Assembly (NCBI GenBank): GCA_030819375.1
Contig: GCA_030819375.1_4699.1
Direction: 5' to 3' (one strand)
DNA length: 38,456 nt
Source: a phage
Below are positions 6,285 to 36,515 of the stretch, piece after piece (positions within the stretch are counted from its first letter, which is position 1; every line of letters starts with the position of its first letter). Below the pieces are notes generated by a model. That model saw nothing but the letters and a program-made list of their open reading frames with translations, had not been told where the DNA came from and searched no databases. The position numbers and the translations under genes are program-made.

Positions 6285-8273
6285 ATGGCTATTATTCAGA
6301 ATGTACCGTGTCCTGCTTGCCAAAAGAACGGACATGATATTACTGGCAATCATTTAATGATCTTTGACGACGGGGCAGGATACTGTAATCGTGGTCACTT
6401 CCATGATAACGGTAAACCTTATTACCACAAGCCGGAAGGTGGCATCGAGATAACCGAGTTACCTATTACTGGCAATATCAAATATACACCTTCTCAATTC
6501 AAAGAAATGGAGAAGGAAGGGAAGATAAGCGACCCTAAATTACGTGCCATCGCACTAGGTGGTATGCGTATGAAAGACCGTTGGGAGGTCATGAATGAGC
6601 AAGAAAGGGCAGACCAAGAAGCAGAGTGGAAACTTGATGTTGAATGGTTCCTCACGCTTAAGCGTAAGAACCTTGTTTCCCGACACATTCGCGGTGACAT
6701 TTGCGCATTGTATGATGTACGTGTCGGACACGATGAAGAGGGTAGAGTCACGCGGCATTACTATCCACGCTTCGAGCAAGGTGAGCTAGTAGGAGCTAAG
6801 TGTCGCACATTACCTAAAGACTTTAAGTTTGGTCATTTAGGTAAACTCTTTGGTATGCAAGATCTTTTCGGGATGAATACTTTGTCTCACGTGTTAGACA
6901 GGGGAAGACGAAAGGATTGCTTGCTTATTGTGGGTGGGGAACTGGATGCGCTAGCAGCGCAGCAGATGCTCCTTGATTCTGCCAAGGGTACTAAGTGGGA
7001 AGGTCAACCTTACCATGTATGGTCTGTTAACAAAGGGGAGTCTTGCCTTGAAGAGATTGTACAGAACCGTGAACACATCGCCCAATTCAAGAAGATTATT
7101 TGGGGCTTCGATGGGGATGAGGTAGGGCAGAAGCAGAATCAGCAAGCGGCTCGCCTGTTTCCTGGTAAATCCTATATCCTTGAATACCCCTCTGGTTGCA
7201 AAGATGCTAACAAGGCATTGATGGCTGGCAAGGCTAAAGAATTTGTAGATGCATGGTTTAATGCCAAGTCATCTGATGAAGTCTTTGGTAGCCAGATTAA
7301 ATCTATCGCATCTCAAAGGGATAAGCTCAAGGCTGCACGTCCAGAGCAAGGGTTATCATGGCCTTGGCCTAAGCTGAACAAGGTAACGCTAGGTATTCGT
7401 AAGAACCAGCTTATCATTGTAGGTGCAGGCTCTGGTGTAGGTAAGACTGAGTTCCTTCGCGAAGTGGTTAAGCACCTCATTGAAGAACACGGTGAATCTG
7501 TAGGCATCATTTCTACAGAAGACCCAATGGTCAAGGTGTCCCGTGCTTTTATCGGCAAGTGGATTGATAAGCGTATTGAGTTACCGCCAACCAACGATCC
7601 GAAAGAAGACGGATACCGTGAGGTGTTCGACTACACCGAGGAAGAAGCTAACGCTGCCATTGATTATGTGGCTGATACAGGGAAGCTGTTTGTAGCTGAC
7701 CTAGAGGGTGACTATTCTATGGAGAAGGTAGAGCAAACTTGCCTAGAGTTTGAGGCTATGGGCATTTCTAATATCATCATTGATAACTTAACGGGGATTA
7801 AATTAGATGAGCGTGCTTTTGGTGGGAAGGTTGGTGCACTTGATGAATGCGTCAAGCGGATTGGTACTATCAAAGACAGACATGCAGTTACTATATTCCT
7901 TGTATCACACCTTACACGTCCTCCGGCAAACCGTACCCAACACGAAGAAGGTGGCGAGGTTATCCTTTCTGACTTCCGAGGCTCAGGGGCTATCGGATTC
8001 TGGGCATCTTACGCCTTGGGGATTGAGCGTAACACAAGAGCTGAAACGCTTGATGAAAGAACTACCACGTACATCTCATGTGTCAAAGACCGCGACCAAG
8101 GTATCTACACCGGAACCAAGATCATGCTTAAGGGTGACATTCAAACCGGACGTTTGAGAGAACCTCAAGCCCGTACTAGGTCATTTGACACAGGCGAAGC
8201 AAGGCAACAAGAAGTGCCTGATTTACCGGACACTATAGAAGAGACTAACTTCGATGAAGAAAGTGAGTTTTGA
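6285..8273 (+). CDS. DNA primase/helicase (T7 gp4-like), 662 aa
   Basis: N-terminal Cys4 zinc ribbon (CPACQ...CNRGH), Walker A GAGSGVGKT, acidic C-terminus ending ...FDEESEF. Confidence 0.95.
   Translation: MAIIQNVPCPACQKNGHDITGNHLMIFDDGAGYCNRGHFHDNGKPYYHKPEGGIEITELPITGNIKYTPSQFKEMEKEGKISDPKLRAIALGGMRMKDRWEVMNEQERADQEAEWKLDVEWFLTLKRKNLVSRHIRGDICALYDVRVGHDEEGRVTRHYYPRFEQGELVGAKCRTLPKDFKFGHLGKLFGMQDLFGMNTLSHVLDRGRRKDCLLIVGGELDALAAQQMLLDSAKGTKWEGQPYHVWSVNKGESCLEEIVQNREHIAQFKKIIWGFDGDEVGQKQNQQAARLFPGKSYILEYPSGCKDANKALMAGKAKEFVDAWFNAKSSDEVFGSQIKSIASQRDKLKAARPEQGLSWPWPKLNKVTLGIRKNQLIIVGAGSGVGKTEFLREVVKHLIEEHGESVGIISTEDPMVKVSRAFIGKWIDKRIELPPTNDPKEDGYREVFDYTEEEANAAIDYVADTGKLFVADLEGDYSMEKVEQTCLEFEAMGISNIIIDNLTGIKLDERAFGGKVGALDECVKRIGTIKDRHAVTIFLVSHLTRPPANRTQHEEGGEVILSDFRGSGAIGFWASYALGIERNTRAETLDERTTTYISCVKDRDQGIYTGTKIMLKGDIQTGRLREPQARTRSFDTGEARQQEVPDLPDTIEETNFDEESEF
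8221..8243 (+). promoter_or_regulatory. Phage promoter embedded in the 3' end of the primase/helicase gene
   Basis: ATTTACCGGACACTATAGAAGAG; +1 G at 8238; encodes DLPDTIEE in frame. Confidence 0.65.
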
Positions 8274-8288
8274 TTAGTGTATTTATCA

Positions 8289-8320
8289 GGGCTTGTCTCA
8301 CATGTGAGACAGGCTCTTAT
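8289..8320 (+). terminator. Hairpin with GTCTCACATGTGAGAC core (copy 3), terminator or processing site
   Basis: 18-bp perfect palindrome 8294-8311 inside a ~12-bp stem with a G-U pair, followed by a weak T-run. Confidence 0.5.
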
Positions 8321-8349
8321 TAAGTACATTAAATAACTGGATATTGATT

Positions 8350-9033
8350 ATGTATAAATTAGTATTGAATGTAGGTGATTATGTTCGTAACATCAATGTA
8401 ACCTCACGTAGATATCGTTGCCGTGGTACTGTGACTAATGTAAGTGAAAACAGCTACTATGTAGAGTACAGTAATGGTATTAGACAGGCTTATCAAAAGG
8501 AATCAGCACATAACTACCTTGAGAAGATTGGAGAGGTAAGCAATCAATGTAAGTGCGTACACGATGAGATTTGCGATAAGTGTGCCCGCCAGCTGCATAA
8601 AATGCTATTATACCCTCTTCGCTATGGTGCTGGTGTTCAAACATTAGCAGAGGCATATGGCAAAAGTAAGACCACACTCAAGAAAGAGCGCCGCAATGTA
8701 ATCACTGGTAAGACTCAAAGTGAAATGATTAAACTATGTGGCACTGCATTAGGTGTTACGCAGTTTAATACTCGTTCATTGGGTAAATCCACAGGGCAAG
8801 CTATGGTGAAAGTTGGTGAAGCTATGATGCACCCAAATGTGCCTGTGCGAATCTTGGATGTTGACCATGCAATCACAGAGCATGGCACACCACGGCGTGT
8901 AGCTAATAATCATTTCGCCGACACTATAGAAGGTATTATTCGTAAGCAAGGGTTGCAGGGTCTTCACATCTTAAATGGTGAAGAATTACTGTACCTACCT
9001 ATCGTTACTGAAGAAACATACGTGAATATCTAA
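8350..9033 (+). CDS. Hypothetical protein (~227 aa)
   Basis: ORF track 8344..9033 begins at TTG; first ATG is 8350; no recognisable motif. Confidence 0.55.
   Translation: MYKLVLNVGDYVRNINVTSRRYRCRGTVTNVSENSYYVEYSNGIRQAYQKESAHNYLEKIGEVSNQCKCVHDEICDKCARQLHKMLLYPLRYGAGVQTLAEAYGKSKTTLKKERRNVITGKTQSEMIKLCGTALGVTQFNTRSLGKSTGQAMVKVGEAMMHPNVPVRILDVDHAITEHGTPRRVANNHFADTIEGIIRKQGLQGLHILNGEELLYLPIVTEETYVNI
8912..8932 (+). promoter_or_regulatory. Promoter-like sequence inside a coding region (ATTTCGCCGACACTATAGAAGG)
   Basis: Core GACACTATAGAAG conserved, upstream half divergent; +1 G at 8929. Confidence 0.35.
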
Positions 9034-9043
9034 GGAGTTAATC

Positions 9044-9262
9044 ATGACTAAGGTATTAATTTATATGCGTGGACCTCATAAATGCTATGCAGTTGTAGCA
9101 CCAGATGGTGTTAAGCCCTATAGTACTTCAAAAGGATTGGCATTAATAGGTGCTAGTAGTAGTGCAAGTTTCCAAATGGAACTTTCTGGTCATTTGACTG
9201 AATGGCAATTCCGTGAGGCTTTTAAAGTCATTGGCAGCTTCATGGTGAAATATGCAGAATAA
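9044..9262 (+). CDS. Hypothetical protein (72 aa)
   Basis: AAGGAG RBS; ORF track. Confidence 0.6.
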   Translation: MTKVLIYMRGPHKCYAVVAPDGVKPYSTSKGLALIGASSSASFQMELSGHLTEWQFREAFKVIGSFMVKYAE

Positions 9263-9428
9263 ACATAGTCTTAAAATGTTCGATGGTCATGAAGACCTGC
9301 AAGCCAAGATTACTAACCAAGCCTTCCTGTTCGCACAGGTAACTATGGCTGAGGCCAAGAAGAATAGTCTCACTCGTGAACAGGTTATCAAGGAAAGTGA
9401 AGTGAAACGTAAGATTCGCAGTCGATAA
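9252..9428 (+). CDS. Small hypothetical protein (58 aa), below ORF-track cutoff
   Basis: ATG 9252 overlaps the end of the upstream gene; ORF ends 7 nt before the terminator hairpin; no strong RBS. Confidence 0.3.
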   Translation: MQNKHSLKMFDGHEDLQAKITNQAFLFAQVTMAEAKKNSLTREQVIKESEVKRKIRSR

Positions 9429-9434
9429 GTCAAG

Positions 9435-9466
9435 GGTTGTCTCACGTGTGAGACAGCCTTTTATCA
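9435..9466 (+). terminator. Intrinsic terminator-like hairpin with GTCTCACGTGTGAGAC core (copy 4)
   Basis: Stem ggttgtctca/tgagacagcc (10 bp, one G-U), loop CGTG, followed by TTTTATCAT. Confidence 0.65.
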
Positions 9467-9488
9467 TATTGATTGGAGGATTAACTTT

Positions 9489-9596
9489 ATGAATAACTAC
9501 GACTCTGATTGGGATTTCCAAGATTCAATGCAACCTAAACCAGAAAGGAGGGAGGATGAGTTCGAAACAGATCAAATGTACGAGGATTTTTACTAA
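9489..9596 (+). CDS. Small acidic hypothetical peptide (35 aa) overlapping the HNH start
   Basis: GGAGG RBS 9 nt upstream of ATG 9489; MNNYDSDWDFQDSMQPKPERREDEFETDQMYEDFY. Confidence 0.3.
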   Translation: MNNYDSDWDFQDSMQPKPERREDEFETDQMYEDFY

Positions 9597-10035
9597 CTAC
9601 ATCCTCTACTCTGATGGTCGAGTTCTTAACGAGAAAACAGGGCAATACCTAAGAGGTTACTTAGATAAGGATGGGTATCATATTATGAATATTAAAGGGA
9701 AACACCTTAAAGTTCATAGATTAGTTGCTACTCATTTCATACCTAACCCTAATAATTTACCTGAAGTTAACCATAAAGATCATGACCGTCTAAATAATAA
9801 TGATTGGAATCTAGAGTGGTGTACTCATCAAGATAACAACAAGCATAGTTTGCATTTAGTGATAGCTTCTTGTGCTAAACGCTATGACTTTATATCACCA
9901 CAGGGCGTCCATGTAGAAGTCTATAACCTACGTGAATTTTGTAGGAATAATAACCTACAACAATCTCATATGGTTAAGGTAGCTAAAGGTAAAGTAAGAC
10001 ATCATAAAGGTTGGACTAATTATGCTAGATGTTGA
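9556..10035 (+). CDS. HNH homing endonuclease (159 aa)
   Basis: KVHRLVATHFIPNP...EVNHKDHDRLNNNDWNLEWCTHQDN motif; GGAGGGAGG RBS; sits directly upstream of and overlapping the DNA polymerase start. Confidence 0.85.
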   Translation: MSSKQIKCTRIFTNYILYSDGRVLNEKTGQYLRGYLDKDGYHIMNIKGKHLKVHRLVATHFIPNPNNLPEVNHKDHDRLNNNDWNLEWCTHQDNNKHSLHLVIASCAKRYDFISPQGVHVEVYNLREFCRNNNLQQSHMVKVAKGKVRHHKGWTNYARC

Positions 10036-12568
10036 TTGGAAAGAATTTGGAAAGAATCGCATACTTGTCATGGATGCTGAAAGTAAAGGTCTGCTTGATG
10101 CTATTCGCTATGGTCATCGCGAAGACGTGCACATCATTTGCTGCATGGACTTGCTCACTACCGAGGAGTTCCTATTCTTCGACCCATATGAGATGCGTGA
10201 CCCTGAGGCAAGGGAACGCCTGAAGGAGTGGGAAGGCCATCAAGACGGAACCTTGGTTGATGGTGTTAACTTCCTGAAGCATTGTGAAGCTATTGTGTCA
10301 CAGAACTTCCTAGGATATGACGGTCTTCTCTTTGAGAAAGCATTCCCTGATATTTGGAAAGGCTTTAACTATACCGAGAAGCGCGGTAAGGGCAGACTCC
10401 GTGCTGACCTGTGTCCGGTGCGAGTCATGGATACGCTGGTGATGAGTCGCCTGTTAAACCCCGATAGACGCCTTCCTCCGCAAGCATATGCCAAAGGTAT
10501 GGGTAACGTCGCCCCTCACTCAATTGAGGCGCACGGCATCCGTATAGGTCGCTATAAACCGGAGAACGAGGACTGGTCTAAACTAACTGACCACATGGTT
10601 CACCGTGTACGTGAGGACGTGGCGATTGGTCGTGACTTGTTCCTCTGGCTCTTTAACGGGGAATGGATGGAGCACAAACGCCGTGGCGTGAATAAACGCA
10701 CGGGCCTAGGCATTGAGACAGCCTTCCACATGGAGTCCATTGTGGCGCTGGAGATGAGCCGTCAGGCCGAGCGCGGGTTCCGTCTGGACATCGACAAGGC
10801 TTTGGCCCGATGCGAAGAATTGGACGCTAAGATTGATGAGACAGTCGCAGCGTTCCGCCCTCACATGCCTATGCGTATCAAGTCTAAACCTTTTAAACCG
10901 GAAGAAAAGAATGAAGTATGCCAACGCGCAAATGAGTATGGAGCTAGCAACAATATACCTACTGTCCTTGACCCCTCACACTTTCTTCATGCCGAGAGAC
11001 GAGGAGATCGCAAGACAGTATGGAGTGTCACTACTAAGTCTGGTGATTGGTCGGCTAGTGTCAAGAAAGACTTTCCTCACCTTAGAGGAAACCGTAATGA
11101 CACGCCAAGCATCAAGTGGATTGGCGCTTACTCGCCTGTTACTTTCGAAGAGATTCCCTTGGGTAACAGGGATACAGTTAAGCAAGTGCTCTATGATTAT
11201 GGATGGAAAGGTGCTGAATTTAACGATACCGAGCAAGCGCATCTCGATGAGTACGGAGTGTTACCCAAACCTTGGAGTGGTAAGATAAATGAAAAGTCCC
11301 TTACTTTATGGCAAGAAAGAGCCGCACGTGAAGGTAAAACAGTCCCTGATTGGTGCTTGGGTATCGCTGCATGGTACATACTCGTATCCCGTCGTGGTCA
11401 GATACTCAACCGTGGTGACGTTGAAGCCTTCAACGAGAAGGGAACGTGGCCCTCGCAGGCTGGTGTACGAAAGTGTCGCGGCCTTGTACCTGTAGCATTC
11501 AACAAGGAGCTAGGAATCAATGCGCAGCAATACTACGAGAGGTACGGATGTTGGCCTACGTCTGACAAAGATGACGGAGAGTGGCGTGTTCCAGCTGTTG
11601 CTATTAGCATTGGCACTTCTACGTTCCGTATGCGTCATCGTAACGTGGTCAATATTCCTGCCCGTGGCTTGTATCCTTTACGTGATTTATTCATAGCAGG
11701 GAAAGGCAAGCTAATCCTTGGTTGTGACGGTGCAGGTCTTGAACTGCGTGTCCTGTCTCACTTCATGAATGACCCTGAGTACCAAGAGATTGTACTGCAC
11801 GGTGATATTCATACGCATAACCAGATGAAGGCTGGTCTTCCTAAGCGTGATATGGCGAAGACGTTTATATACGCCTTCCTCTATGGCTCTGGTATAGCCA
11901 ACCTTGCAGCAGTATGTGGTGTTACTGAGGAAGAAATGAAGGAAGTTGTGGCAAGATTCGAGATTGAACTGCCGTCTCTTGCACGTCTTCGTGAGAATGT
12001 TATCGCACAAGGTAACAAGTTTGGCTACCTGCAAGCACCTGATGGGCATTGGGGTCGCATCCGCATGTCTGGTGGTGAACTTAAAGAGCACACGATGCTT
12101 AACGTATTACTCCAGATGACTGGCTCTTTGTGTATGAAATATGCATTAGTCAAGGCATTTGCAGTAATGCGCAAGGAAGGTGTAGCCTTGGACGCTATGG
12201 GAAATCCTTGTGGTGTGGCTAACGTGCATGATGAAATCCAGATGGAAGTTCCTGAAGAGGAGGTCTTGTATCTTAACTACGACCTACCTTTCACCTTAGA
12301 TGGGTTCGAAACAGAGAAGGCTGCCGTGCAAGCAGTGTTCGATGCAGAGGAGAAACGTGTTCATGTGGATTCTGAAGGACGTATGTGGTCTGCTGCAAAC
12401 CTCGTTAGTGTTGATGCTGATGCTGGTGTATTGCATTGCCAGCGCCGTTATCACCGTGCAGGTCATATCATTGCCGACGCCATGACTTGGGCAGGGCAGT
12501 ATCTGAAGATGCGTTGCCCGATGGCAGGCGAATATAAGATTGGCGCAAGTTGGAAGGAAACACACTGA
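10022..12568 (+). CDS. DNA polymerase, family A (T7 gp5-like), 848 aa
   Basis: Exo I motif ILVMDAE, motif B KTFIYAFLYGSG, motif C VHDEIQ; size close to what I recall for SP6-type polymerases. Confidence 0.95.
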   Translation: MLDVDWKEFGKNRILVMDAESKGLLDAIRYGHREDVHIICCMDLLTTEEFLFFDPYEMRDPEARERLKEWEGHQDGTLVDGVNFLKHCEAIVSQNFLGYDGLLFEKAFPDIWKGFNYTEKRGKGRLRADLCPVRVMDTLVMSRLLNPDRRLPPQAYAKGMGNVAPHSIEAHGIRIGRYKPENEDWSKLTDHMVHRVREDVAIGRDLFLWLFNGEWMEHKRRGVNKRTGLGIETAFHMESIVALEMSRQAERGFRLDIDKALARCEELDAKIDETVAAFRPHMPMRIKSKPFKPEEKNEVCQRANEYGASNNIPTVLDPSHFLHAERRGDRKTVWSVTTKSGDWSASVKKDFPHLRGNRNDTPSIKWIGAYSPVTFEEIPLGNRDTVKQVLYDYGWKGAEFNDTEQAHLDEYGVLPKPWSGKINEKSLTLWQERAAREGKTVPDWCLGIAAWYILVSRRGQILNRGDVEAFNEKGTWPSQAGVRKCRGLVPVAFNKELGINAQQYYERYGCWPTSDKDDGEWRVPAVAISIGTSTFRMRHRNVVNIPARGLYPLRDLFIAGKGKLILGCDGAGLELRVLSHFMNDPEYQEIVLHGDIHTHNQMKAGLPKRDMAKTFIYAFLYGSGIANLAAVCGVTEEEMKEVVARFEIELPSLARLRENVIAQGNKFGYLQAPDGHWGRIRMSGGELKEHTMLNVLLQMTGSLCMKYALVKAFAVMRKEGVALDAMGNPCGVANVHDEIQMEVPEEEVLYLNYDLPFTLDGFETEKAAVQAVFDAEEKRVHVDSEGRMWSAANLVSVDADAGVLHCQRRYHRAGHIIADAMTWAGQYLKMRCPMAGEYKIGASWKETH

Positions 12569-12684
12569 TGGATAGGCTTGACATTGTTTACCTCTTCTTC
12601 ACTTTCTTTCTTACACTCCTTATGCTTGCTTGTTATGGGAGTATGAGACTAGATATACCTGATGAAGAAGAGGGTTACGACTAA
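12568..12684 (+). CDS. Small hydrophobic peptide (38 aa), candidate membrane protein
   Basis: ATG overlaps DNAP stop (tgATG); MDRLDIVYLFFTFFLTLLMLACYGSMRLDIPDEEEGYD. Confidence 0.35.
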   Translation: MDRLDIVYLFFTFFLTLLMLACYGSMRLDIPDEEEGYD

Positions 12685-12782
12685 TGCAAACTGCTTTTAT
12701 TATTCTTGGTATCATATTATTTATGGTAGTATTCTGGGCTTTCTCTGGCATTGACCCAGATTGTGATGGTAACTACGACTGA
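12684..12782 (+). CDS. Small hydrophobic peptide (32 aa), similar design to the preceding one
   Basis: taATG overlap; MQTAFIILGIILFMVVFWAFSGIDPDCDGNYD; one TM-like helix then acidic tail ending YD. Confidence 0.35.
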   Translation: MQTAFIILGIILFMVVFWAFSGIDPDCDGNYD

Positions 12783-12791
12783 GTTATACTC

Positions 12792-12813
12792 AAGGTCACT
12801 TACGAGTGGCCTT
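12792..12813 (+). other. Hairpin (stem aaggtcact/agtggcctt, loop UACG) with the same flanks as the 31213 element
   Basis: ttatactcaagg-[hairpin]-cctttatga framework shared with 31204-31246. Confidence 0.35.
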
Positions 12814-12840
12814 TATGAATAACTTAACTAAGGAAATATT

Positions 12841-13101
12841 ATGATTAAATATACTTCTTATCAGTTAACTAAAGACCGTAAGATAGGTATTGAGGTTAAG
12901 GCTTGGGAGCGAGGTCCTATCTCTGGAGTAATAGAGGTGCGTTCCAATGAAGGTATGATGATTAGAAGACACTTTAGTTTCGCTAAATCTACTTGTAAGC
13001 ATTTAACAGAGGAACAATTCTTACATCATATTATTAATAATATTAAAGCCATCCAGCCTTATGCCAAGCAAGTTGTAGGTAATGTCACAGTAGTACATTG
13101 A
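12841..13101 (+). CDS. Hypothetical protein (86 aa)
   Basis: AAGGA RBS; ORF track. Confidence 0.6.
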   Translation: MIKYTSYQLTKDRKIGIEVKAWERGPISGVIEVRSNEGMMIRRHFSFAKSTCKHLTEEQFLHHIINNIKAIQPYAKQVVGNVTVVH

Positions 13102-13123
13102 TTTACTGGACACTATAGAAGGA
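13101..13123 (+). promoter_or_regulatory. Phage-RNAP promoter (ATTTACTGGACACTATAGAAGGA)
   Basis: Consensus copy overlapping the stop codon of the upstream gene; +1 G at 13118. Confidence 0.8.
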
Positions 13124-13187
13124 AAGCCTAGACAATCTAGGTTTATAAGGTAGTATAGGTAATTAAGTAAATATAGGAGAGATAAAT

Positions 13188-13565
13188 ATGTCTATGGTAA
13201 CTACTCTGGTATTCGTAGCTCAATACTTTCGTGGTCTTGCTAATAAGTTCAAGTCCAAGGCTATCAAAGCTATTGAGTCTCGCATCGAGGCAGTACAGGC
13301 AGAGCAAGTTAAAGTTGAAGAACATCGCAGCTCTCAAATGATTGACTGCCATAACCGCCACTATTCATCTCGTGATGACCTTAATGCACGCCAAGTCAAA
13401 GAGGTTGAAGAGATGCTGGCACGTCACCAGCAAGAGCGCGACAGCCTGAAAGCTGAATTTGAAGAGAACAAGGCATCCATCGCCCTTGTACATCAAGCCG
13501 CATCTGACAGCCTGAAGAAAGAGATTGTTATGCTGGAAATTGAGTTAGACAACCTGACCAAATAA
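13188..13565 (+). CDS. Hypothetical protein (125 aa) with short hydrophobic N-terminus and predicted coiled coil
   Basis: AGGAGA RBS; heptad-like charged repeats; no embedded lipoprotein ORF found in the other frames. Confidence 0.65.
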   Translation: MSMVTTLVFVAQYFRGLANKFKSKAIKAIESRIEAVQAEQVKVEEHRSSQMIDCHNRHYSSRDDLNARQVKEVEEMLARHQQERDSLKAEFEENKASIALVHQAASDSLKKEIVMLEIELDNLTK

Positions 13566-13586
13566 TTACTGGACACTATAGAACAA
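13565..13586 (+). promoter_or_regulatory. Phage-RNAP promoter (AATTACTGGACACTATAGAACA)
   Basis: Consensus copy overlapping the stop of the upstream gene; +1 G at 13581. Confidence 0.7.
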
Positions 13587-13642
13587 TAGGTCGGCTTAGT
13601 TCGGCCTATGATTGTGTAGTGTAACAATAGGAGACTAAATAA

Positions 13643-14449
13643 ATGGCACGTGGTGATTTTGATTTTGGTGCTCAGGTTACTAAAGCTGAAGGTAAGGTTT
13701 TTAAGAACCCTGAAGTTGGTGATCATGAAGCAGTAATCTCTGGCATCATTCATGTGGGTTCCTTCCAAGATATCTTTAAGAAAGGTAATACCACTGAAGT
13801 TAAGAAGCCAGCAAACTTTGTTCTTGTTAAGATTGTACTGATGGGTGACGATGACAAGAACGAAGATGATTCTCGCATGGAACAGTGGATGGCTGTGCCT
13901 CTGAAGTCTGGTGACAAGGCAACCTTGACTAAGTTCCTGAATGCAGTTGACCCTAAAGAGCTGCTTGGTGGTTTCGATGACTTCATTGGTGAATGCCTGA
14001 CTGCAACTATGGTTGGCTCTGGCGACAAGAAGGATGATGGTACTTTCAAGTATGTTAACTGGAAAGGCTTTGGCGGTATGCCTGATAAGTTGAAGAAGCT
14101 TGTAATGGCTCAGGTAGAAGAGGAAGGTCTGTCTATGACAGGTCATATCACCTTCGACAAGCTGACCAAAGAAATCCTTGATGACATTCCTGCTAACTTG
14201 GTACGTCAATACTTCCTGAACGAGACACCTCGTGGTAAGAACCTGTCTGTTGCTGGCTCTCACGTAGAAGCTATTATCAAAGCTGCTCGTGAAGAAGACC
14301 CTGAATGGAAGAAGGCTAAGAAGAAAGACGAGGAAGATGCTACTCCAGCTAATCGTAAGTCTCTGGATACTGGCGAGTCTGTTCCACAGGAAGTACCTGA
14401 AGCAGAAGATACTCCTGCACCGGAGATGGATGAGGACGCGGAATATTAA
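13643..14449 (+). CDS. Putative ssDNA-binding protein (gp2.5-like), 268 aa; function inferred
   Basis: Strong RBS (AGGAGA) directly after a promoter; size and acidic C-terminal tail ending in an aromatic residue (...PEMDEDAEY) resemble T7 gp2.5. Confidence 0.45.
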   Translation: MARGDFDFGAQVTKAEGKVFKNPEVGDHEAVISGIIHVGSFQDIFKKGNTTEVKKPANFVLVKIVLMGDDDKNEDDSRMEQWMAVPLKSGDKATLTKFLNAVDPKELLGGFDDFIGECLTATMVGSGDKKDDGTFKYVNWKGFGGMPDKLKKLVMAQVEEEGLSMTGHITFDKLTKEILDDIPANLVRQYFLNETPRGKNLSVAGSHVEAIIKAAREEDPEWKKAKKKDEEDATPANRKSLDTGESVPQEVPEAEDTPAPEMDEDAEY

Positions 14450-14458
14450 GGAGAAAGG

Positions 14459-14677: not shown

Positions 14678-14678
14678 A

Positions 14679-14694
14679 GTCTCACGTGTGAGAC
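14679..14694. repeat. GTCTCACGTGTGAGAC hairpin element (copy 5)
   Basis: 6-bp stem with 4-nt loop directly after the stop codon at 14677 and 15 bp upstream of the promoter at 14710. Confidence 0.7.
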
Positions 14695-28259: not shown

Positions 28260-31202
28260 ATGGCAATTGAACGTCAAGCTGTACAAGGTTTAGAAAGAGT
28301 ACAGTCAAGGGGTGCGCCAATGCCTATGTCTTTCACACCACGACAAGTGAGTATCTCAGGGGGCGCTGATGCCTCCGGTAGTAGATTTTTGGAAGACTTA
28401 GTAAACGCCGCAAGTAGTGTGGCTGATGTCACTACTGCTATCCTTAATCAGCAAGTAGAAGACGATAAGGTTCGCCAGATGGATAGGGCTTTGTCTGGCA
28501 TGATGCCTTCTGAGGATGCCACGGTAGGCGGTGCTCGTGCTCATATGCTGGTTAGTTTACAAAATGATGTAATCGCACAGACAACTGCGCTACAAGCAGA
28601 AGCACAGCGATTTCAAGGTAGTGACGAGGATTGGGAAAACTATGTAGTTCAATCTCGTAATGAGGTACAAAATAGGTTATGGCAAAGTTATCCAGAGCTT
28701 CGTGGTGACAAAGATTCTATGAGGCTTGTCACTAACGCGTTCATGGAGCAGCAACCTAGAATTACTGCAACTAGAGCAGAGGCTAAACTTCGTCAAGAAG
28801 AAGAAGCACGAATGCAATCTATGCAGTCTCGTATTATCATGGCTACAAGGGACGTAGCGCCAGATGCCACTGGTGCAGCTCTTATCCAGCTACAAAAAGA
28901 AGCACTGGCGATGGGTCTTAGTAAACCTGAGTTTGATCAAATGGTTGCTAAGATTGCATCTGAAAGAGCGGCAGTAGGAGATGATAGTCTTATTCAGGGA
29001 ACCAAGGCATTGGTGGATGATAAGGGTGTCTCTTTGTATGACCGTGTTGGTGCTTTGCAAACTGGAGAAATTCAAGCTAACAGAACTTGGGCTGCTCAGA
29101 ATCAGGTTGCCCTCTTCGAGAAGAAAGATGCAGCTATAAAGGCATTCGATGCAGGGCAACTTACTCGCGAAGAGTTACTTCAGGTGATGCAGAATCACAA
29201 TGAATTGACTGGTGGCACTGCTTGGTCTGATAGCGAGATCAAGGCTATCTTCGATAGGCAAGCTAAGGTTAATGCAGAGAAAGCAAAGCTAGAAGATCTT
29301 ATTGCACGAGGTGAATCTGGGTCGCCTTTAGGCTTACAGGACATTAGTAAGGATGACAGAAAGGCATATGCTGAAGCCTTAGTTAGTACCTACACTAAGC
29401 TGGCAGAAGATGAAATTGCCCGTACTGGTGCAACGGGAGAACAGGCTGAAGCTATTCGCGGTAGGTATGAGCAGATGCGTTATCTTAAATTGGGTCAACA
29501 GCTTATTGAAGACCCGATCATTAAGGAAAGGTATTCGTCGCTTATGCAGCTATCCTCTGCCAACCTCAAGGATATGAATGTTGAACCTGAAGCACTGCAA
29601 ACTATCATGCGAGCACGTGATTCTATTCCAGAGGATGCACGTCGTGCTGTTATGGGAGACAAAGAATATGCCTTTGTTGAGAACTATGACTTAGCAACTC
29701 GCATGGGGTATAACACAGGTCAAGCTATTGAGTTTGCACAGAATGCCTCTCGCGGCGAGAAATTACAAGGTTCTGTGCTCAAAGAACTTAATGATGATGT
29801 AGATGGAGTAGTTAGTGACATTGCAGGAGGCAGCTGGCTCACTTTTGGTGATAACATGAGTGAAATGGGACGTGACATTATGATGGAGGAGGCAAGTACA
29901 ATTGCTAGAGCAATGAAGGTTGCAGGCCATAATAATGACACTATTAAGCGTCACCTTAAATCCTACCTTACAAGCCAGTATACACAATTATCAGAAGGTT
30001 TCTTTACTCAAGGTGTTCTTGTAAAAGGAGACATTCGTACGTTAGGAGATACTATAGGAGTAAACCAAGGAGACGTCCCAATTACTCTCCGTCAGTACCT
30101 AGATAATAACAAACAAGCCCTGCTAGATGCATCAGGTGGGTTAGAGGAAGGCGACCTATATTTTGATGTAGATGCGAAGCGCGGCCTCTTTACTATACGT
30201 GCAGGCTCTGGTCGTGTGCCTGTTACACAGGCAATGCCTTTGTCTGAAATCAAAGGGCAATCCTTGCTTAAGCAACGGTATAATGCAGAGGTTAAAGCAC
30301 GTGATGAAGGGCGTAAGAACTTTGAAGCACAACAAATGCGAATGTGGGGCGCAGGTGGCTACCAAGCACAACCACCTGCAAAGACTACAGCCAAAACTGT
30401 AGGCTCACGTGGGATTGCTGACTTCTTAATGTCACCTGCCTTTGCATCAGGCGAGAATCTACCAGCAAACTTTGAGTTCGGATATAAGAGAAATAATATG
30501 GACTTCTACAATTATGTAGCCAAGATGGAGAATAATACCAATGTAGGTTTTGACCGAGTAGCTGGTGTTTATACACCATACAAAGATGCACATGGTCAGT
30601 CTGTAGGGTACGGTCACTTCCTTACTACTGAAGAGAAGAAGAACGGATACATTATGATTGGTACAGAGAAAGTGCCATTCACTCCGGGACAATCTCAATT
30701 AACACCAGAACGAGCCATGCGCCTTCTACAGCAAGACTTGAAGAGTCATGTGCCAAGTACTTCAGGATGGGCTGTTCCCTTCGAAGAGATGCACCCAGGT
30801 GTTCAGCGTGGCCTTATGGACTTGTCCTATAATTTAGGAAAAGGCGGGATCCAGAATGCTCCTAAGGCATACGCTGCATTTAAGGCTGGCAAGTTTACTG
30901 ATGGCTTCATCGAGATGCTATCTACTGCATCTACTGAAGGCAAGCGCAGCACTGGATTGTTAGTTCGTAGGGCGGAAGCTTATAACCTTGCACAGAGTGG
31001 TGGTGCTATCCCTAAGATTAGTGAAGTGGAGACACGAGCAGATGGATCTATGTATGTGAAGTTTGCAGGACAGATGTCAGAGGCTTTCGTAAATAAATCA
31101 ATCTACAATCAGATTGGTAAGGATGGGTGGATGCAAGTGTATCCTCCAAAGCAAGGTGCACTTGCACCTAACACTCAGATTGGTAGAATCAAACTGAGCT
31201 AG
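28260..31202 (+). CDS. Internal virion (ejection) protein with C-terminal lysozyme-like domain, 980 aa
   Basis: Residues ~740-910: YKDAHGQSVGYGH...LTPERAMRLLQQDL...LMDLSYNLGKGG...LLVRRAEAYNL resembles GH24 phage lysozymes. Confidence 0.9.
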   Translation: MAIERQAVQGLERVQSRGAPMPMSFTPRQVSISGGADASGSRFLEDLVNAASSVADVTTAILNQQVEDDKVRQMDRALSGMMPSEDATVGGARAHMLVSLQNDVIAQTTALQAEAQRFQGSDEDWENYVVQSRNEVQNRLWQSYPELRGDKDSMRLVTNAFMEQQPRITATRAEAKLRQEEEARMQSMQSRIIMATRDVAPDATGAALIQLQKEALAMGLSKPEFDQMVAKIASERAAVGDDSLIQGTKALVDDKGVSLYDRVGALQTGEIQANRTWAAQNQVALFEKKDAAIKAFDAGQLTREELLQVMQNHNELTGGTAWSDSEIKAIFDRQAKVNAEKAKLEDLIARGESGSPLGLQDISKDDRKAYAEALVSTYTKLAEDEIARTGATGEQAEAIRGRYEQMRYLKLGQQLIEDPIIKERYSSLMQLSSANLKDMNVEPEALQTIMRARDSIPEDARRAVMGDKEYAFVENYDLATRMGYNTGQAIEFAQNASRGEKLQGSVLKELNDDVDGVVSDIAGGSWLTFGDNMSEMGRDIMMEEASTIARAMKVAGHNNDTIKRHLKSYLTSQYTQLSEGFFTQGVLVKGDIRTLGDTIGVNQGDVPITLRQYLDNNKQALLDASGGLEEGDLYFDVDAKRGLFTIRAGSGRVPVTQAMPLSEIKGQSLLKQRYNAEVKARDEGRKNFEAQQMRMWGAGGYQAQPPAKTTAKTVGSRGIADFLMSPAFASGENLPANFEFGYKRNNMDFYNYVAKMENNTNVGFDRVAGVYTPYKDAHGQSVGYGHFLTTEEKKNGYIMIGTEKVPFTPGQSQLTPERAMRLLQQDLKSHVPSTSGWAVPFEEMHPGVQRGLMDLSYNLGKGGIQNAPKAYAAFKAGKFTDGFIEMLSTASTEGKRSTGLLVRRAEAYNLAQSGGAIPKISEVETRADGSMYVKFAGQMSEAFVNKSIYNQIGKDGWMQVYPPKQGALAPNTQIGRIKLS

Positions 31203-31212
31203 TGTTATACTC

Positions 31213-31246
31213 AAGGTTTGTCTCACATGTGAGACATGCCTTTATG
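31213..31246 (+). terminator. Hairpin with GTCTCACATGTGAGAC core (copy 6), terminator or processing site
   Basis: Stem ggtttgtctca/tgagacatgcc, loop CATG, then TTTATGA; directly after the stop at 31202. Confidence 0.5.
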
Positions 31247-31265
31247 ACATTAATTAGGAGGTAAC

Positions 31266-34200
31266 ATGGTTGATAGTATTAACCAAAATTGGGTGGCGGT
31301 GACTCAACGCAAGTTACCGCCTACCTTCTCTCAAGTTGCTGAAGCAGAGCGTAAGGCCGAAGCACAGAGAGCTAATGACAAAGTATTCCAAACAGCCATA
31401 GAGAGTGAGTGGGCTTTGTATGGTGGACAACGTGCCTATGAACGCCACACTACAGAGTTTGCTGAACAAGAAGGTTATGAAGTACCTGAATCAACTAAGG
31501 ATGAACTATCCAAGTCGTATGGGTATGAAATAGCGCAAGATATAGTCAAGAATGTGAAGTCTCCAGAAGAGTTGCAATTCCGTATGTCTAATGCTGCTGC
31601 TGATAAAGACAGAGCAGACATCTTAGCACGTAATGGTTTCACAGGTTTCAGCGCACAGATTGCTGCTGGTATTCTTGACCCTGTAGGTTGGGCGACTTCT
31701 CTAGTAGCTGCACCTGTAGCTGGTGCTGTCAAAGTAGGTCGTCTAGGTAGGGTTATCAAGACGGCTGCCTTATCTGGTGCTGAAAATGCTGCATTAGAAG
31801 CTGTGCTTGCACAAGGTGATTACCAGCGAGGTGTCGATGATGTACTGGCTGCTGCCGGGTTTGGTATGATTATGGGCGGTACTATTGGCGCTGCAACTAG
31901 GGAACGCATAGCCAGTGCTGGTTCTCGTACAGCGGCAGAGAGAGCAGAGGCTGTATTTGATGACTTGGACACCGTAGTAAAAGGTGCTGATGAGTTTGAC
32001 TCGTCTGCTGCTCGTGCTGTACGTGAGGCCATGGAGTATGACGCGTATATGGCAGCACGTAATTATGAACCACTTCGTGCAAGAGAGGTGGATGCAGATA
32101 TGGCAATTCTATCTCACACAGACAACTTGAAAGCCAATGCGTCGGTAAGGATGAGTGCTAGAGAGAAAGGACTACTGAAGAAACAGATACGCCAACTGGA
32201 AGCAGAAGCAGCCACACTTAAGGGGAAGAAGATAGATGCTGTAGCAGAGGCTGCCGCCGCTAAGGGTGCACCTAAATCTGCTGCGGACAGATTGGATTTA
32301 GATGTTCAGAAGAAAGCACTGGCACGTAGATTCGATGAACCACTTGCTGATTTACAAGCGCGTCTTGATGAGTTGAATGCCAAGTTATCTCGTGCGAACA
32401 ATGTAGGTAAGGCTAAGGAGGAGCTTAAGAGATTCTCATCGCTGTCCCGTGAAGATCAAATAAAGGAACTAGGTTTAGACGCACCAATGCGTAAGGTGGA
32501 GATGACCCGTGCTGTACGAGATGCAGTAGCTGCAATCCGTGCCGAACGTAAGAAGACACCTACCGAGATACATGCTGAACAAGCTGCAGAAGAGGTAATC
32601 AAGCAAAAGGCAGAGGACTCTATTGGTGCTAAACGTGTTGAAGGTTCAGAGATTGCAGGCGAGCAGTTTGACTTATCTAAAAACATGGAAGAACTTATGG
32701 ATGACTTGGCACGAGAAGCATATCAGTCAGAGGTGCGGCCTATTAATCTTAAGGGTCTAGGTTCAGTGTCTTCTGTGATTCTTAACTCAGAGAATCCTGT
32801 GTTCCGAGGTCTAGGTCTTCGTCTGCTTGAAAATGCTCAAGGTGGTGCATACCAAGGTAAGACAGCTTCTATCTTATCAGATGTGTATGGCAACCTTATT
32901 CGTCATGCAGAACGTAACAGGTACAATGATGGTTTCTCTCAATTCATCAAAGATAACAACCTACGTGCGGTAGATTATCTTAACCCTGCAACGACACGGG
33001 ATTTCAATAATCAGATTTATACAGCAATTGTTCGTGGCATACCAGAAGATACACCTCGTGGTGTTAAACTGGCAGCAGAAGGTATCGCTGATAAACTCAA
33101 GAAAGCACTTGAGATTCGTAAGCAAGCAGGAGAGCATGGATTCGAAGATATACAATCTGCTAAGGATTACATCCCTGTTATCTATGACGGTATCAAGGTT
33201 ACTGAGGCAGTTAACAAATTGGGGAGTAGTGAGGCTGTTATTCACTTACTATCCAAAGGCTACCAGACAGGTAAGTACAAACTTGGCAAGAAAGCTGCGG
33301 ATGCCCTAGCAAAAGTACAGTACATTCGTGCATCGGACTCCACCCTCTCTAGTCGTGTTGCATTCGATAGGGTGGTATCCCAGCAGCAGCAGGCTCAATT
33401 GATTGAGGATCTGAAGAAAGCAGGGGTACCAGACCATATCATTGATAATTTCATTGAAGGTACTGAATTAGCAGAAATGGCTGAATCGGTATCCAATCGA
33501 GCTAAAGCTAGTATGGGTATTAATACGCAAGCCGAATATGGCGGTTTGAAGGTGCAGGATTTGCTTAATACAAACGTAGGGGAGCTAGCGGAGAACTACG
33601 GCAAAGAGGCAGCGGGTGGTGCTGCATTGGCTGCTATGGGTTTCCCTACTCGCCAATCTGTGCTGAACGCAATAGATGCCGCAGAACGCGCAGGCCGCAA
33701 TATGGCGGGGTCAAATGCTAAGGCAATCAAACAGCTTAGGTCTGAGGCAGAAATGCTCAGAGATGCCGTTAAGTTAATTTACGGCAACACTATTGACGCC
33801 GACCCTAACTCTGGAATTGTCAGGGGCACTCGACGTGTCCGTGAGATTACAGGGTTGTTACGATTAGGCCAAATGGGCTTCGCTCAGATACCTGAACTGG
33901 CACGTGCAATCTCTAAGATGGGACTAGGGACTGTGCTGAAGTCTGTACCTGCCACTAAGTTCTTACGTTCGAGAGCGGCTCGTAAAGGTGGCACTGCTCA
34001 GGGTGAGTTGCTTGAACCTGAACTGCGAGAAATGGAGGAACTCTTAGGTTATATCGGGGAGGATAACTGGCTCACAGGGTGGAATGTCCGTCATGATGAG
34101 TTCGGAGAAACTGCGGATAACCTAGGCAAGCTGTCTGCTATTATTGATAACGGATTAGCTATGGGTAGTAGAATCAACACAATACTATCTGGTTTTAAAG

Positions 34201-35069
34201 CAGTACAAGGTGGCTCAGAGAAGATTATAGCTCGCTCTATCAATAAGCGACTAAAGCAACATTTGATGGGGGAGCGACAGTTACCCAAAGCAGATCTTGA
34301 AGAAGTTGGCCTAAGTGAAGATGTCATGAAGAGACTTAAGCGTCACTTTGATGATAACCCAATGTACGCTGATTACAAAGGTGAAAAAGTTCGTATGATG
34401 AACTTTGATGCTATGGAGCCAGACCTGAGAGAGACAGTGGGTGTTGCTGTGCGAAGAATGTCAGGACGTCTTATTCAGCGTAACTTCATAGGAGATGAAG
34501 GTATCTGGATGAATAAATGGTGGGGCAAGGCATTGACCCAGTTTAAGTCATTCTCTATTGTCTCTATTGAGAAACAGCTAATCCATGATTTACGAGGAGA
34601 TAAGATTCAGGCTGCACAGATCCTTGCATGGTCTACCTTACTAGGCTATGCATCTTATGCACTACAGATGCAGATGCAAGCAATTGGTAGGGAGGACAGA
34701 GACAAGTTCTTGAGGGATAAGTTCGAGACACAGAATATCGCTATGGGTGTCTTTAATAAACTCCCACAAGTTGCAGGCTTCGGTCTTGCTGGTGATGCTT
34801 TGGCAACATTTGGCCTAATGCCAGACTCTATGATGCAAGCGCCTGGACGTATGGGGTTCCGTCAGCAAGGGTTTGGTGATTTGGTAGCAGGTGCTGGTGT
34901 GATCAGCGATACAGTTAATTTGTCACAAGCACTAGTTAAGTACGCCAACGGAGATGATGATGTCTCTACTCGGCAGTTGGTGGACAAGGTTCGTCGCCTT
35001 GTTCCTTTGGCAAATACTATTGGTGTAGGTCAGATGACTAAAGCCAGTGTAGACTTATTGGAGGATTGA
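31266..35069 (+). CDS. Large internal virion (ejection/core) protein, gp16-like, 1267 aa
   Basis: Largest ORF of the structural module; AGGAGG RBS. Confidence 0.9.
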   Translation: MVDSINQNWVAVTQRKLPPTFSQVAEAERKAEAQRANDKVFQTAIESEWALYGGQRAYERHTTEFAEQEGYEVPESTKDELSKSYGYEIAQDIVKNVKSPEELQFRMSNAAADKDRADILARNGFTGFSAQIAAGILDPVGWATSLVAAPVAGAVKVGRLGRVIKTAALSGAENAALEAVLAQGDYQRGVDDVLAAAGFGMIMGGTIGAATRERIASAGSRTAAERAEAVFDDLDTVVKGADEFDSSAARAVREAMEYDAYMAARNYEPLRAREVDADMAILSHTDNLKANASVRMSAREKGLLKKQIRQLEAEAATLKGKKIDAVAEAAAAKGAPKSAADRLDLDVQKKALARRFDEPLADLQARLDELNAKLSRANNVGKAKEELKRFSSLSREDQIKELGLDAPMRKVEMTRAVRDAVAAIRAERKKTPTEIHAEQAAEEVIKQKAEDSIGAKRVEGSEIAGEQFDLSKNMEELMDDLAREAYQSEVRPINLKGLGSVSSVILNSENPVFRGLGLRLLENAQGGAYQGKTASILSDVYGNLIRHAERNRYNDGFSQFIKDNNLRAVDYLNPATTRDFNNQIYTAIVRGIPEDTPRGVKLAAEGIADKLKKALEIRKQAGEHGFEDIQSAKDYIPVIYDGIKVTEAVNKLGSSEAVIHLLSKGYQTGKYKLGKKAADALAKVQYIRASDSTLSSRVAFDRVVSQQQQAQLIEDLKKAGVPDHIIDNFIEGTELAEMAESVSNRAKASMGINTQAEYGGLKVQDLLNTNVGELAENYGKEAAGGAALAAMGFPTRQSVLNAIDAAERAGRNMAGSNAKAIKQLRSEAEMLRDAVKLIYGNTIDADPNSGIVRGTRRVREITGLLRLGQMGFAQIPELARAISKMGLGTVLKSVPATKFLRSRAARKGGTAQGELLEPELREMEELLGYIGEDNWLTGWNVRHDEFGETADNLGKLSAIIDNGLAMGSRINTILSGFKAVQGGSEKIIARSINKRLKQHLMGERQLPKADLEEVGLSEDVMKRLKRHFDDNPMYADYKGEKVRMMNFDAMEPDLRETVGVAVRRMSGRLIQRNFIGDEGIWMNKWWGKALTQFKSFSIVSIEKQLIHDLRGDKIQAAQILAWSTLLGYASYALQMQMQAIGREDRDKFLRDKFETQNIAMGVFNKLPQVAGFGLAGDALATFGLMPDSMMQAPGRMGFRQQGFGDLVAGAGVISDTVNLSQALVKYANGDDDVSTRQLVDKVRRLVPLANTIGVGQMTKASVDLLED

Positions 35070-36028
35070 TGAGTTACACATTCACTGAACATACAGCGAA
35101 TGGCACTCAAACTACTTTCCCATTCCGGTTCGCTGGGAGGGACAAGGGGTACTTGAGGGCTTCTGATATTTTAGTTGAAGTAAGAAATGATGGTGTGTGG
35201 AACACGGTAAGTGGTTGGACACTTACAGGTACTAACCAGATAACCTTTAATGTACCGCCAGCGGCAAATACACAACTTCGTATCAGGCGCGTTGTAGAGA
35301 AAGAAGAGCCTTATGCAGAGTTTGACCGTGGTATAACCTTGGATATGAAATCTCTCAATAACTCCTTTATACATCTTTTGGAAGTATCTCAGGAGCTACT
35401 GGAGGGTTTCTATCCAGATGGTTACTTTGTAAAGCAAGATGTATCTTGGGGTGGACATAAGATTACTGATTTGGCTGATGGCACAAATCGGGGAGATGCA
35501 GTAAATAAAGGACAACTTGATGCCATCGACAAGAAGCATACAGATTGGAACGCCAAACAGGACATTGAGATTGCTGGCCTTAAAGTTGGTATGACTTCTG
35601 GTATTGCGCACAGAACTGTTCCTTGGTACACGATAGTCCAAGGTGGTGAGATTTCCGTAAAACCCCCTTATGAATTTCAAGATGCACTAGTTTTCCTTAA
35701 TGGGGTATTGCAGCACCAAATTGTAGGCGCATACTCTATAAGCAACAACACTATCACTTTCGCAGAGCCGCTTGTGGCTGGTACAGAGGTGTATGTGTTG
35801 GTAGGTAATCGTGTTGCTACATCTGAACCTAATATTCAGTTAGAGTTGAATTTTGACTTAGTAGAAGGCCAACAAGTAGTAAAGATTGGCTCTGCATTTA
35901 AGTATATTGAGGTTTATCTTGATGGACTATTACAACCTAAACTTACTTATCGGGTAGATGGTGACACTGTTACTTTCTCAGAGGGAGTGCCAGAATGCCG
36001 GATGACTGCTAAGATTATCACAGAATAA
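35066..36028 (+). CDS. Tail fiber N-terminal domain-like adaptor protein, 320 aa
   Basis: N-terminus TQTTFPFRFAGRDKGYLRASDILVEV resembles the T7 gp17 N-terminal tail-attachment domain; too short for a full fiber. Confidence 0.75.
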   Translation: MMSYTFTEHTANGTQTTFPFRFAGRDKGYLRASDILVEVRNDGVWNTVSGWTLTGTNQITFNVPPAANTQLRIRRVVEKEEPYAEFDRGITLDMKSLNNSFIHLLEVSQELLEGFYPDGYFVKQDVSWGGHKITDLADGTNRGDAVNKGQLDAIDKKHTDWNAKQDIEIAGLKVGMTSGIAHRTVPWYTIVQGGEISVKPPYEFQDALVFLNGVLQHQIVGAYSISNNTITFAEPLVAGTEVYVLVGNRVATSEPNIQLELNFDLVEGQQVVKIGSAFKYIEVYLDGLLQPKLTYRVDGDTVTFSEGVPECRMTAKIITE

Positions 36029-36037
36029 GGAGGTGGG

Positions 36038-36232
36038 ATGATTAACTCCGAACTGGTAGATAGTGGTGTGAAGCTTGCGCCACCTGCACTCGTATCAGGT
36101 GGGTACTTCCTCGGTATCAGTTGGGATAATTGGGTATTAATAGCAACATTCATTTATACCGTGTTGCAAATTGGGGACTGGTTTTATAATAAGTTCAAGA
36201 TTTGGAGGGAGAAGCGTGAGCGTACACAATAA
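36038..36232 (+). CDS. Holin (class II-like), 64 aa
   Basis: Hydrophobic TM segments plus charged C-terminus (KFKIWREKRERTQ); AAGGAGG RBS; position before terminase as in T7 gene 17.5. Confidence 0.7.
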   Translation: MINSELVDSGVKLAPPALVSGGYFLGISWDNWVLIATFIYTVLQIGDWFYNKFKIWREKRERTQ

Positions 36233-36515
36233 ACATGCAGCTACAGAGGATGAGGTTGGCATTCTGCATGGTGCTATTACCAAAATCTTCAATAAGAAAG
36301 CACAGGCAATACTGGACACTATAGAAGAAGACCCTGATGCAGCATTACATTTAGTGTCTGGTAAGGTTATTGGTGCGATGTGTAAGTGGGTTCTTGATAA
36401 CGGCATTACCGCCACACCTGCTGCACAGCAGGAAGAGTCCAAGTTATCTAAGCGCCTCAAGGCTATCCGAGAGGCATCCAGTGGTAAGATAATTCAATTC
36501 ACTAAGGAGGGTTGA
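36216..36515 (+). CDS. Terminase small subunit (gp18-like), GTG start
   Basis: GGAGGG 6 nt upstream of GTG 36216 (track start 36171 is TTG without RBS); directly upstream of and overlapping the large terminase. Confidence 0.6.
   Translation: MSVHNKHAATEDEVGILHGAITKIFNKKAQAILDTIEEDPDAALHLVSGKVIGAMCKWVLDNGITATPAAQQEESKLSKRLKAIREASSGKIIQFTKEG
36307..36327 (+). promoter_or_regulatory. Promoter-like sequence inside the small terminase gene
   Basis: ACTGGACACTATAGAAGAAG matches the core but lacks the upstream ATTTA; +1 G at 36324. Confidence 0.45.

Follow-up and report, generated by a model that had tools for sequence, protein, structure and literature searches.

The 38,456-nucleotide (nt) stretch of phage DNA analysed here, hereafter the window (contig GCA_030819375.1_4699.1 of NCBI GenBank assembly GCA_030819375.1), contains an SP6-type promoter in 12 copies, all on the plus strand, three of which lie inside open reading frames (ORFs): one in the tail of the primase/helicase gene (site 1), one in a 227-amino-acid (aa) ORF homologous to K1-5 gp10 and SP6 gp11 (site 2) and one in the small terminase gene (site 3; Table 1). 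The window is the near-complete genome of a Vectrevirus and shares 95.6% identity with Escherichia phage LL11 across 91% of the first 25 kb. Vectrevirus belongs to the subfamily Molineuxvirinae of the family Autographiviridae, and its members are K1E/K1-5/SP6-like podoviruses. Gene order agrees with that of LL11, K1-5, K1E and SP6, and every major ORF lies on the plus strand. The same genome encodes a single-subunit phage RNA polymerase (RNAP) that is 96% identical over 875 aa to K1E RNAP and which, given this similarity, is the enzyme expected to read the promoter copies; K1E RNAP and the "K1E promoter" are in experimental use as an expression system (PMC6412113).

An initial annotation had predicted promoter-like sequences inside these three ORFs, and our analysis finds all of them there, with the +1 G of each correctly assigned. 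Its description of one full and two partial matches also holds, with 0, 5 and 5 mismatches to the 23-mer consensus at sites 1, 2 and 3, respectively. Judging from the sequence comparisons presented below, we consider it likely that sites 1-3 are promoters for the phage's own K1E/SP6-type RNAP that lie within translated DNA.

Table 1. Promoter copies in the window, the genes that host them and neighbouring features
Feature	Position	Strand	Remarks
Site 1, full-consensus promoter copy (-17 to +6)	8221..8243	+	ATTTACCGGACACTATAGAAGAG; +1 at 8238; helicase codons 646-653, D-L-P-D-T-I-E-E
Site 2, sub-consensus promoter-like copy	8912..8934	+	ATTTCGCCGACACTATAGAAGGT; +1 at 8929; core -9 to +4 exact; -13 (C/T) and -10 (C) non-consensus
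Site 3, promoter copy	36307..36329	+	CAATACTGGACACTATAGAAGAA; +1 at 36324; small-terminase codons 31-38, A-I-L-D-T-I-E-E
Nine remaining promoter copies	1769..38434	+	23-mer starts 1769, 5954, 6139, 13101, 13564, 14710, 17893, 23070, 38412
Single-subunit phage RNAP	3233..5860	+	
Primase/helicase, 662 aa, host of site 1	6285..8273	+	DnaB_C E=6.7e-15, Toprim_2; acidic tail ...EETNFDEESEF
Long hairpin, leader between site 1 and gp10 start	8274..8332	+	dG -36.5 kcal/mol, z -5.6, 0/200 shuffles; contains palindrome GTCTCACATGTGAGAC
227-aa ORF (K1-5 gp10/SP6 gp11 homologue), host of site 2	8350..9033	+	ATG at 8350; 39% identity to SP6 gp11
DNA polymerase	10022..12568	+	Gene order as in relatives
Strong intrinsic terminator after major capsid gene	24342..24368	+	Sole strong one between 23092 and site 3
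Small terminase, 99 aa, host of site 3	36216..36515	+	Pfam DNA_Packaging_2, PF11123, E=5e-15
Large terminase	36515..38410	+	First complete cistron downstream of site 3; ATG overlaps small-terminase stop (TGATG)

Promoter copies within coding DNA

SP6/K1E-type promoters have a consensus from -17 to +6 with a core, GACACTATAG, that ends at the +1 G. Site 1 matches this consensus at 23/23 positions and site 3 at 19/19 positions from -14 to +5, while site 2 matches in its core only and thus in part. All 12 copies are oriented with the genes and have a gene block downstream. The 13-nt core GACACTATAGAAG occurs 16 times in the window with at most two mismatches, compared to 1.13 expected, and none of 100 shuffles reached 16; six of these copies are exact, all on the plus strand, and sites 1-3 are among them. 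The 23-mer with at most three mismatches was found six times against an expectation of 0. We also scored the sites with a matrix trained on the nine other copies only, which are intergenic or at gene ends, leaving sites 1-3 out. Site 1 scored 37.9 bits, site 3 23.4 bits and site 2 10.5 bits (training range 30-43), where the maximum over 200 shuffles was 17.5 bits. Taken alone, the partial matches at sites 2 and 3 would fit chance occurrence in an A+T-rich genome, but this explanation has a negligible probability as it is refuted by the shuffle controls, by the one-strand bias of the strong copies and by positional conservation in relatives. Indeed, sites 1-3 are conserved as well as the intergenic promoters in all 11 complete Vectrevirus genomes. 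Host sigma-70 promoters (-35/-10 hexamers with 16-18 nt spacing) were rejected as an explanation since a scan for them revealed no enrichment, with 20 matches against 31.7 expected in positions 5800-25000 and 20 against 24.0 in positions 24300-38456. One weak 9-of-12 sigma-70 match (8882-8910) adjoins site 2 and none coincides with sites 1-3.

Each of the three sites lies wholly within the coding sequence of the upstream gene, as does phi4c of phage T7. Other promoters in the window overlap a gene end by 10 nt (1769), 6 nt (17893) or 2 nt (13564), and those at 23070 and 38412 begin at most 7 nt from a stop codon. Promoter placement is therefore a continuum from intragenic through gene-end to intergenic.

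The three sites share one reading frame, GAC ACT ATA GAA, which encodes D-T-I-E, and the alternative frame that reads CTA TAG is blocked by its stop codon. Across the 11,550 codons analysed, D-T-I-E occurs three times against 0.15 expected, only at sites 1-3 and with a single spelling throughout. Calculated from the codon usage of this phage, this spelling has a probability of P = 0.015 per site: only 16% of Ile codons are ATA, and isoleucine is written as ATT in each of the four other xTIE peptides of the proteome. This excess of D-T-I-E and its codon spelling argue that the DNA signal dictates the peptide and not the reverse, in agreement with the initial proposal that the signal constrains the peptide.

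Covariation of the helicase tail with polymerase specificity

The site 1 23-mer ends 27 nt before the helicase stop codon, in a linker that follows the DnaB_C domain (end near residue 604) and precedes the acidic tail ending in F. This linker presumably tolerates peptide changes. We compared 29 loci of the helicase 3' end with 10 kb on either side, deriving the consensus of each genome from its other promoters, and found that the helicase 3' end bears the genome's own promoter consensus in eight specificity groups. Examples include ACCGGACACTATAG in Vectrevirus, AGGTGACACTATAG in SP6-type phages and ACCACCCAGCATAG in Era103-like phages, along with GGGCGGACTATAG, AGACCACTATAG, GGGGCTACTATAG, GTGGCGGGTATAG and GTGTTGCACTATAG. 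Between -13 and -1, 12-13 of the 13 positions agree with the consensus of the site's own group and 4-10 with those of other groups, such that the specificity region follows polymerase specificity and the own consensus is the best match in 8/8 groups. The tail peptides vary along with the promoter (DLPDTIEE, ELGDTIE, DLGRTIEQ, ELETTIEE, EIGATIEQ, PIVAGIEE, ELPPSIEE and DMCCTIE).

Two insertions separate the promoter from its peptide. An HNH-like ORF (Pfam HNH_3, E = 1.4e-3, below the curated cut-off) has been inserted just 5' of site 1 in the Vectrevirus PDP21P3 (locus L078; OZ035769, 16784-17340) and in an SP6-type phage (locus L056; 8709-9235). In both, the helicase has gained a new, duplicated acidic tail (...DEVEEF), and a remnant of the old tail remains 3' of the promoter. 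The promoter has been retained in another frame, and its TAG (ATT TAG in L056) serves as the stop of the HNH-like ORF. Given that the promoter survives this frame change, the site 1 sequence is kept regardless of the peptide it encodes. The copy in L056 was considered as a counterpart of site 2 but was rejected, as it is site 1 displaced by the insertion. Within the clade, synonymous diversity at site 1 is 0.038 compared to a gene median of 0.125. From these comparisons site 1 is almost certainly a working promoter and, as the covariation indicates, an ancient one that co-evolves with polymerase specificity. The initial claim that phage-RNAP promoters constrain their host proteins thus holds for site 1, with its covariation in eight groups and its survival of insertion, and is plausible for site 3, where the changes are directional and mostly synonymous, while for site 2 it is uncertain owing to the bases at -13 and -10.

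Evidence for and against promoters at sites 2 and 3

Site 3 is positioned 191 nt upstream of the large-terminase ATG and is identical to promoter 14710 over 19 nt (-14 to +5), differing from it at -17 to -15 only. It is identical in 11/11 complete Vectrevirus genomes and present in 22/23 distinct clade sequences, with single variants at -8 (L022), -7 (L018) and +3 (L021). The peptide AIL-D-x-I-E-E-DP is also retained by phages of at least five other specificity groups, spelled ATC CTN GAT GCT ATC GAG, whereas the Vectrevirus spelling is ATA CTG GAC ACT ATA GAA. This amounts to five synonymous changes and one Ala-to-Thr change relative to the outgroups, and all differences are toward the promoter, including the Vectrevirus-type CTG at -12 to -10. 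Further, we did not identify an own-consensus promoter within 1.5 kb of the small terminase gene in any of the other groups compared. Synonymous diversity in the site 3 core is 0.049 compared to a gene median of 0.183. Taken together, the sequence comparison identifies site 3 as a gain specific to the Vectrevirus clade, and one that is probably functional as a promoter. Its origin could lie in these six codon changes, five of them synonymous, or in a single short patch of gene conversion.

The genomic setting of site 3 is a long late region. No promoter copy was found in positions 23092-36307, a span of 13.2 kb between the capsid promoter at 23070 and site 3 that contains almost no intergenic DNA. 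Transcription of all tail and internal-virion genes must therefore rely on read-through, and a new promoter there almost has to be intragenic because the stretch is nearly free of gaps. In some relatives, mutPK1A2 (L089, 570-1000) and ACG-C91 among them, an HNH homing endonuclease gene separates the two terminase genes, just downstream of site 3.

Replication priming has been proposed for T7 promoters at T7 origins, and it is conceivable that the copies in the window are kept mainly for such a role outside mRNA synthesis, namely priming or activation of replication, or recombination, gene conversion or homing-endonuclease islands. The HNH-like genes that adjoin site 1 in two lineages, and that downstream of site 3 in mutPK1A2, would fit this explanation, and the 19-nt patch common to site 3 and promoter 14710 could stem from short gene conversion. 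However, all copies are co-directional with transcription and upstream of gene blocks, the covariation fits a transcription signal, there is no sequence mark of an origin, and such roles would still first require a promoter. We therefore regard a mainly non-mRNA role as very improbable.

For site 2, a metagenome scan for gp10 relatives yielded 7 loci, and we extended the sample with unannotated Vectrevirus genomes. All 27 distinct gp10 sequences from Vectrevirus share an unchanged core, and its five codons have a synonymous diversity of 0.026 compared to a gene median of 0.180, placing them in the lowest 0.9% of windows. In one contig (L044) the core has been kept although a frameshift makes gp10 stop at its TAG. 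In SP6-type phages the homologous gene (39% identity) contains a near-consensus copy (TTACGTGACACTATAGG) at roughly this position. Positions -9 and -8 separate SP6 from T7 promoters according to Lee and Kang (1993), as cited in PMC11347151, and site 2 retains both. Compared across groups, the sequence at this position approaches the SP6 consensus in SP6-type phages and falls below consensus in Vectrevirus, and it is a mismatch in one further relative, L065. From this conservation we conclude that site 2 is probably a weak promoter, a call that we regard as close to evenly balanced.

The competing explanation is that sites 2 and/or 3 are non-functional look-alikes, either relics of old promoters or by-products of the conserved peptide L-D-x-I-E-E, maintained through protein constraint and common ancestry and not through selection for transcription, and that only site 1 is working. 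A number of observations weigh against the reading of all three sites as promoters. The bases of site 2 at -13 (C/T) and -10 (C, sometimes A) are absent from all other promoter copies in 11 genomes and drift at synonymous positions, its score of only 10.5 bits lies within the shuffle range, and it has been lost without replacement or compensation in three relatives (L013, L074 and L087). The gp10 homologue of L065 (11404-11428) contains an SP6-type copy, TTACGTGACACTATAGGAGAG, that mismatches this phage's own consensus, TGTGTTGCACTATAG, and therefore the specificity of its own polymerase; this copy may have been imported by recombination or may be a relic. AIL-D-x-I-E-E-D-P is conserved in the small terminase of all genera, so site 3 began from a near-match, and it has natural variants at -8 and -7 (L022 and L018). 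The within-clade synonymous test is individually weak for both site 1 (12th percentile) and site 3 (14th percentile). Finally, our paper searches found no transcript 5'-end mapping for this genus and no run-off evidence for sites 1-3.

A string in the gp35/gene-36 homologue is a further point on this side. This promoter-like sequence, TTAGGAGATACTATAGGAG at 30040-30062 in the window and TTAGGTGACACTATAGG at 29393-29415 in SP6 (L004), is near-consensus in SP6 and degenerate in the window. Among the loci compared (L095-L112), the SP6-type version is retained in some Vectrevirus genomes and GACGCTATAGG occurs in several SP6-type phages, such that the string follows a protein motif, LGD[TA]IG, and not polymerase specificity. 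We considered 30040 as a fourth internal promoter and rejected it, as it aligns in 1/11 genomes and does not covary with polymerase specificity. Intragenic look-alikes can thus persist for coding reasons, riding on a protein motif, and for this reason we give covariation the greatest weight in the case of site 1 and regard site 2 as uncertain. The segment aligns with LL11 only among the 11 Vectrevirus genomes, which suggests that it is mosaic.

Still, it would seem unlikely that sites 2 and/or 3 are look-alikes. The invariant core of site 2 with its low synonymous diversity, kept even in the frameshifted L044, is at odds with this explanation. So is the history of site 3, whose five synonymous changes, two of them to the rare ATA, are all toward a Vectrevirus-specific consensus; the site itself is identical in all 11 complete genomes. 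We favor the reading of all three sites as promoters. We are also somewhat inclined, on comparative grounds, to a joint scenario in which the helicase linker peptide, dictated by the promoter within it, was rewritten at each specificity shift, in at least eight groups, and site 3 was born within an essential gene in the Vectrevirus ancestor, giving the large terminase its own transcript.

Comparison with known phages and a model of expression

The initial annotation had treated the intragenic arrangement as unusual, a view that does not survive comparison with T7 and SP6. In SP6, copies at 8411 (gene 10, primase/helicase) and 9112 (gene 11) lie in the same genes and at the same relative positions as sites 1 and 2, and they share the D-T-I frame and the core GACACTATAG. 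They differ in the specificity region, which is GGT/CGT in SP6 and CCG/CTG/GCC in the window. At the position of site 2, SP6 has a copy that nearly matches its own consensus whereas that of Vectrevirus is sub-consensus, and SP6 lacks a counterpart of site 3. SP6 promoters are reported in a 2025 paper to "appear 12 times" (PMC11880802), and our scan of SP6 arrives at 12 plus-strand core copies only when those inside genes 10, 11 and 36 are counted, which is suggestive of a published count that includes intragenic copies.

In the T7 reference record, phi4c (12671) falls within gene 4A/4B (11565-13265), and phi4.3 and phi4.7 follow shortly after the gene. As predicted for sites 1 and 2, these three class II promoters are read by a single-subunit RNAP and feed the DNA polymerase block. 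T7 belongs to a different subfamily and has a different consensus, and phi4.3 is located 76 nt beyond the stop codon of gene 4 while site 1 is within the helicase tail. We know of no promoter inside the small terminase gene 18 of T7. Closer to the window, K1E, K1-5 and LL11 have sites 1-3 at the same positions with identical or near-identical sequences, and site 1 of K1-5 has a C to T change at -7. This variant (GGATACTATAG) is found at three different promoters, at 8320 in K1-5 (L002), at site 3 of L018 and at one Vectrevirus counterpart of 13564; its independent appearance at three promoters suggests that the polymerase tolerates it. Intragenic promoters are thus a normal and already-described placement in tightly packed phages of the T7/SP6 type. 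Less expected by-products of the comparison are the co-evolution of promoter and helicase peptide in eight groups and the apparent birth of site 3, both as judged from sequence.

By analogy with T7 and SP6 RNAP, the phage enzyme would bind duplex DNA from approximately -17 to -5, melt the TATA element and start at the G of TATAGAAG. Recognition would take place on DNA, so codon reading on longer upstream transcripts would not interfere, and the single benign, stop-free D-T-I-E frame would accommodate the signal at all three sites. RNAs that start internally would lack the 5' part of the host gene and would thus supply extra message for downstream genes only. We infer initiation, its strength, its effect on expression and the uncoupling of downstream genes from this analogy and from the comparative evidence. 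Under the proposed mechanism site 1 would be an ancient middle-class promoter that feeds gp10 through the DNA polymerase gene, taking the role of T7 phi4.3, and site 2 would serve this gene block as a second promoter that is weak or in decay, similar to T7 phi4.7. Site 3 would be newer and restricted to Vectrevirus, boosting transcripts of the large but not the small terminase after the 13-kb promoter-free late region. Internal starts would then generate nested, graded sets of transcripts, as is known from T7.

These findings do not change the existing view of transcription in these phages, although they have practical consequences. We found no annotated promoter features in the GenBank records of the Vectrevirus phages LL11, K1-5 and K1E, though the genomes carry about a dozen promoters with three of them intragenic, nor in that of SP6. 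Anyone recoding, codon-optimising or deleting parts of gp10, the small terminase gene or the helicase tail would thus lose a promoter without noticing, a concern for therapeutic K1-type phages. The comparison also illustrates the evolution of overlapping codes and offers a sequence-only way to separate working internal promoters from look-alikes. If both the rewriting of the linker and the birth of site 3 are true, they would provide a clean case in nature of a transcription signal evolving jointly with a protein sequence that shares its DNA.

Hairpins and repeats

The leader between site 1 and the start of gp10 is occupied by the long hairpin at 8274-8332, which is labelled as a "terminator" in MK373771. 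We rejected this assignment, as there is no U-tract and the hairpin is one of a family of repeated palindromes. RNase III sites are found in T7 leaders according to Dunn and Studier (1983), as cited in PMC6938266, and by analogy the hairpin looks like an RNase III processing site. The palindrome GTCTCACATGTGAGAC is present at 5936-5951, 6118-6133, 8295-8310, 9439-9454, 14679-14694 and 31220-31235, with weaker copies at 318 and 6884, for a total of 6-8 occurrences compared to 0.03 expected. Its copies cap long hairpins that occupy intergenic gaps, often adjoining promoters, and these hairpins likewise look like RNase III processing sites. Other genera have a different palindrome, TGTCCAACA..TGTTGGACA, at the equivalent places. 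A search of Rfam returned no family match anywhere in the window.

An HNH-type ORF is also present in the window at 9556-10035, immediately before the DNA polymerase gene. Elsewhere in the sample, L060 (803-941) and the left ends of L061 and L062 contain five or six copies of CTGTGGATAA within approximately 130 nt; on the opposite strand, TGTGGATAA reads as the E. coli DnaA-box consensus TTATCCACA. Near one end of its contig, a distant relative (L067, 269-480) harbors approximately 25 tandem copies of a 9-10-nt unit (GTTGTCCTG / GTCTGTCCTG).

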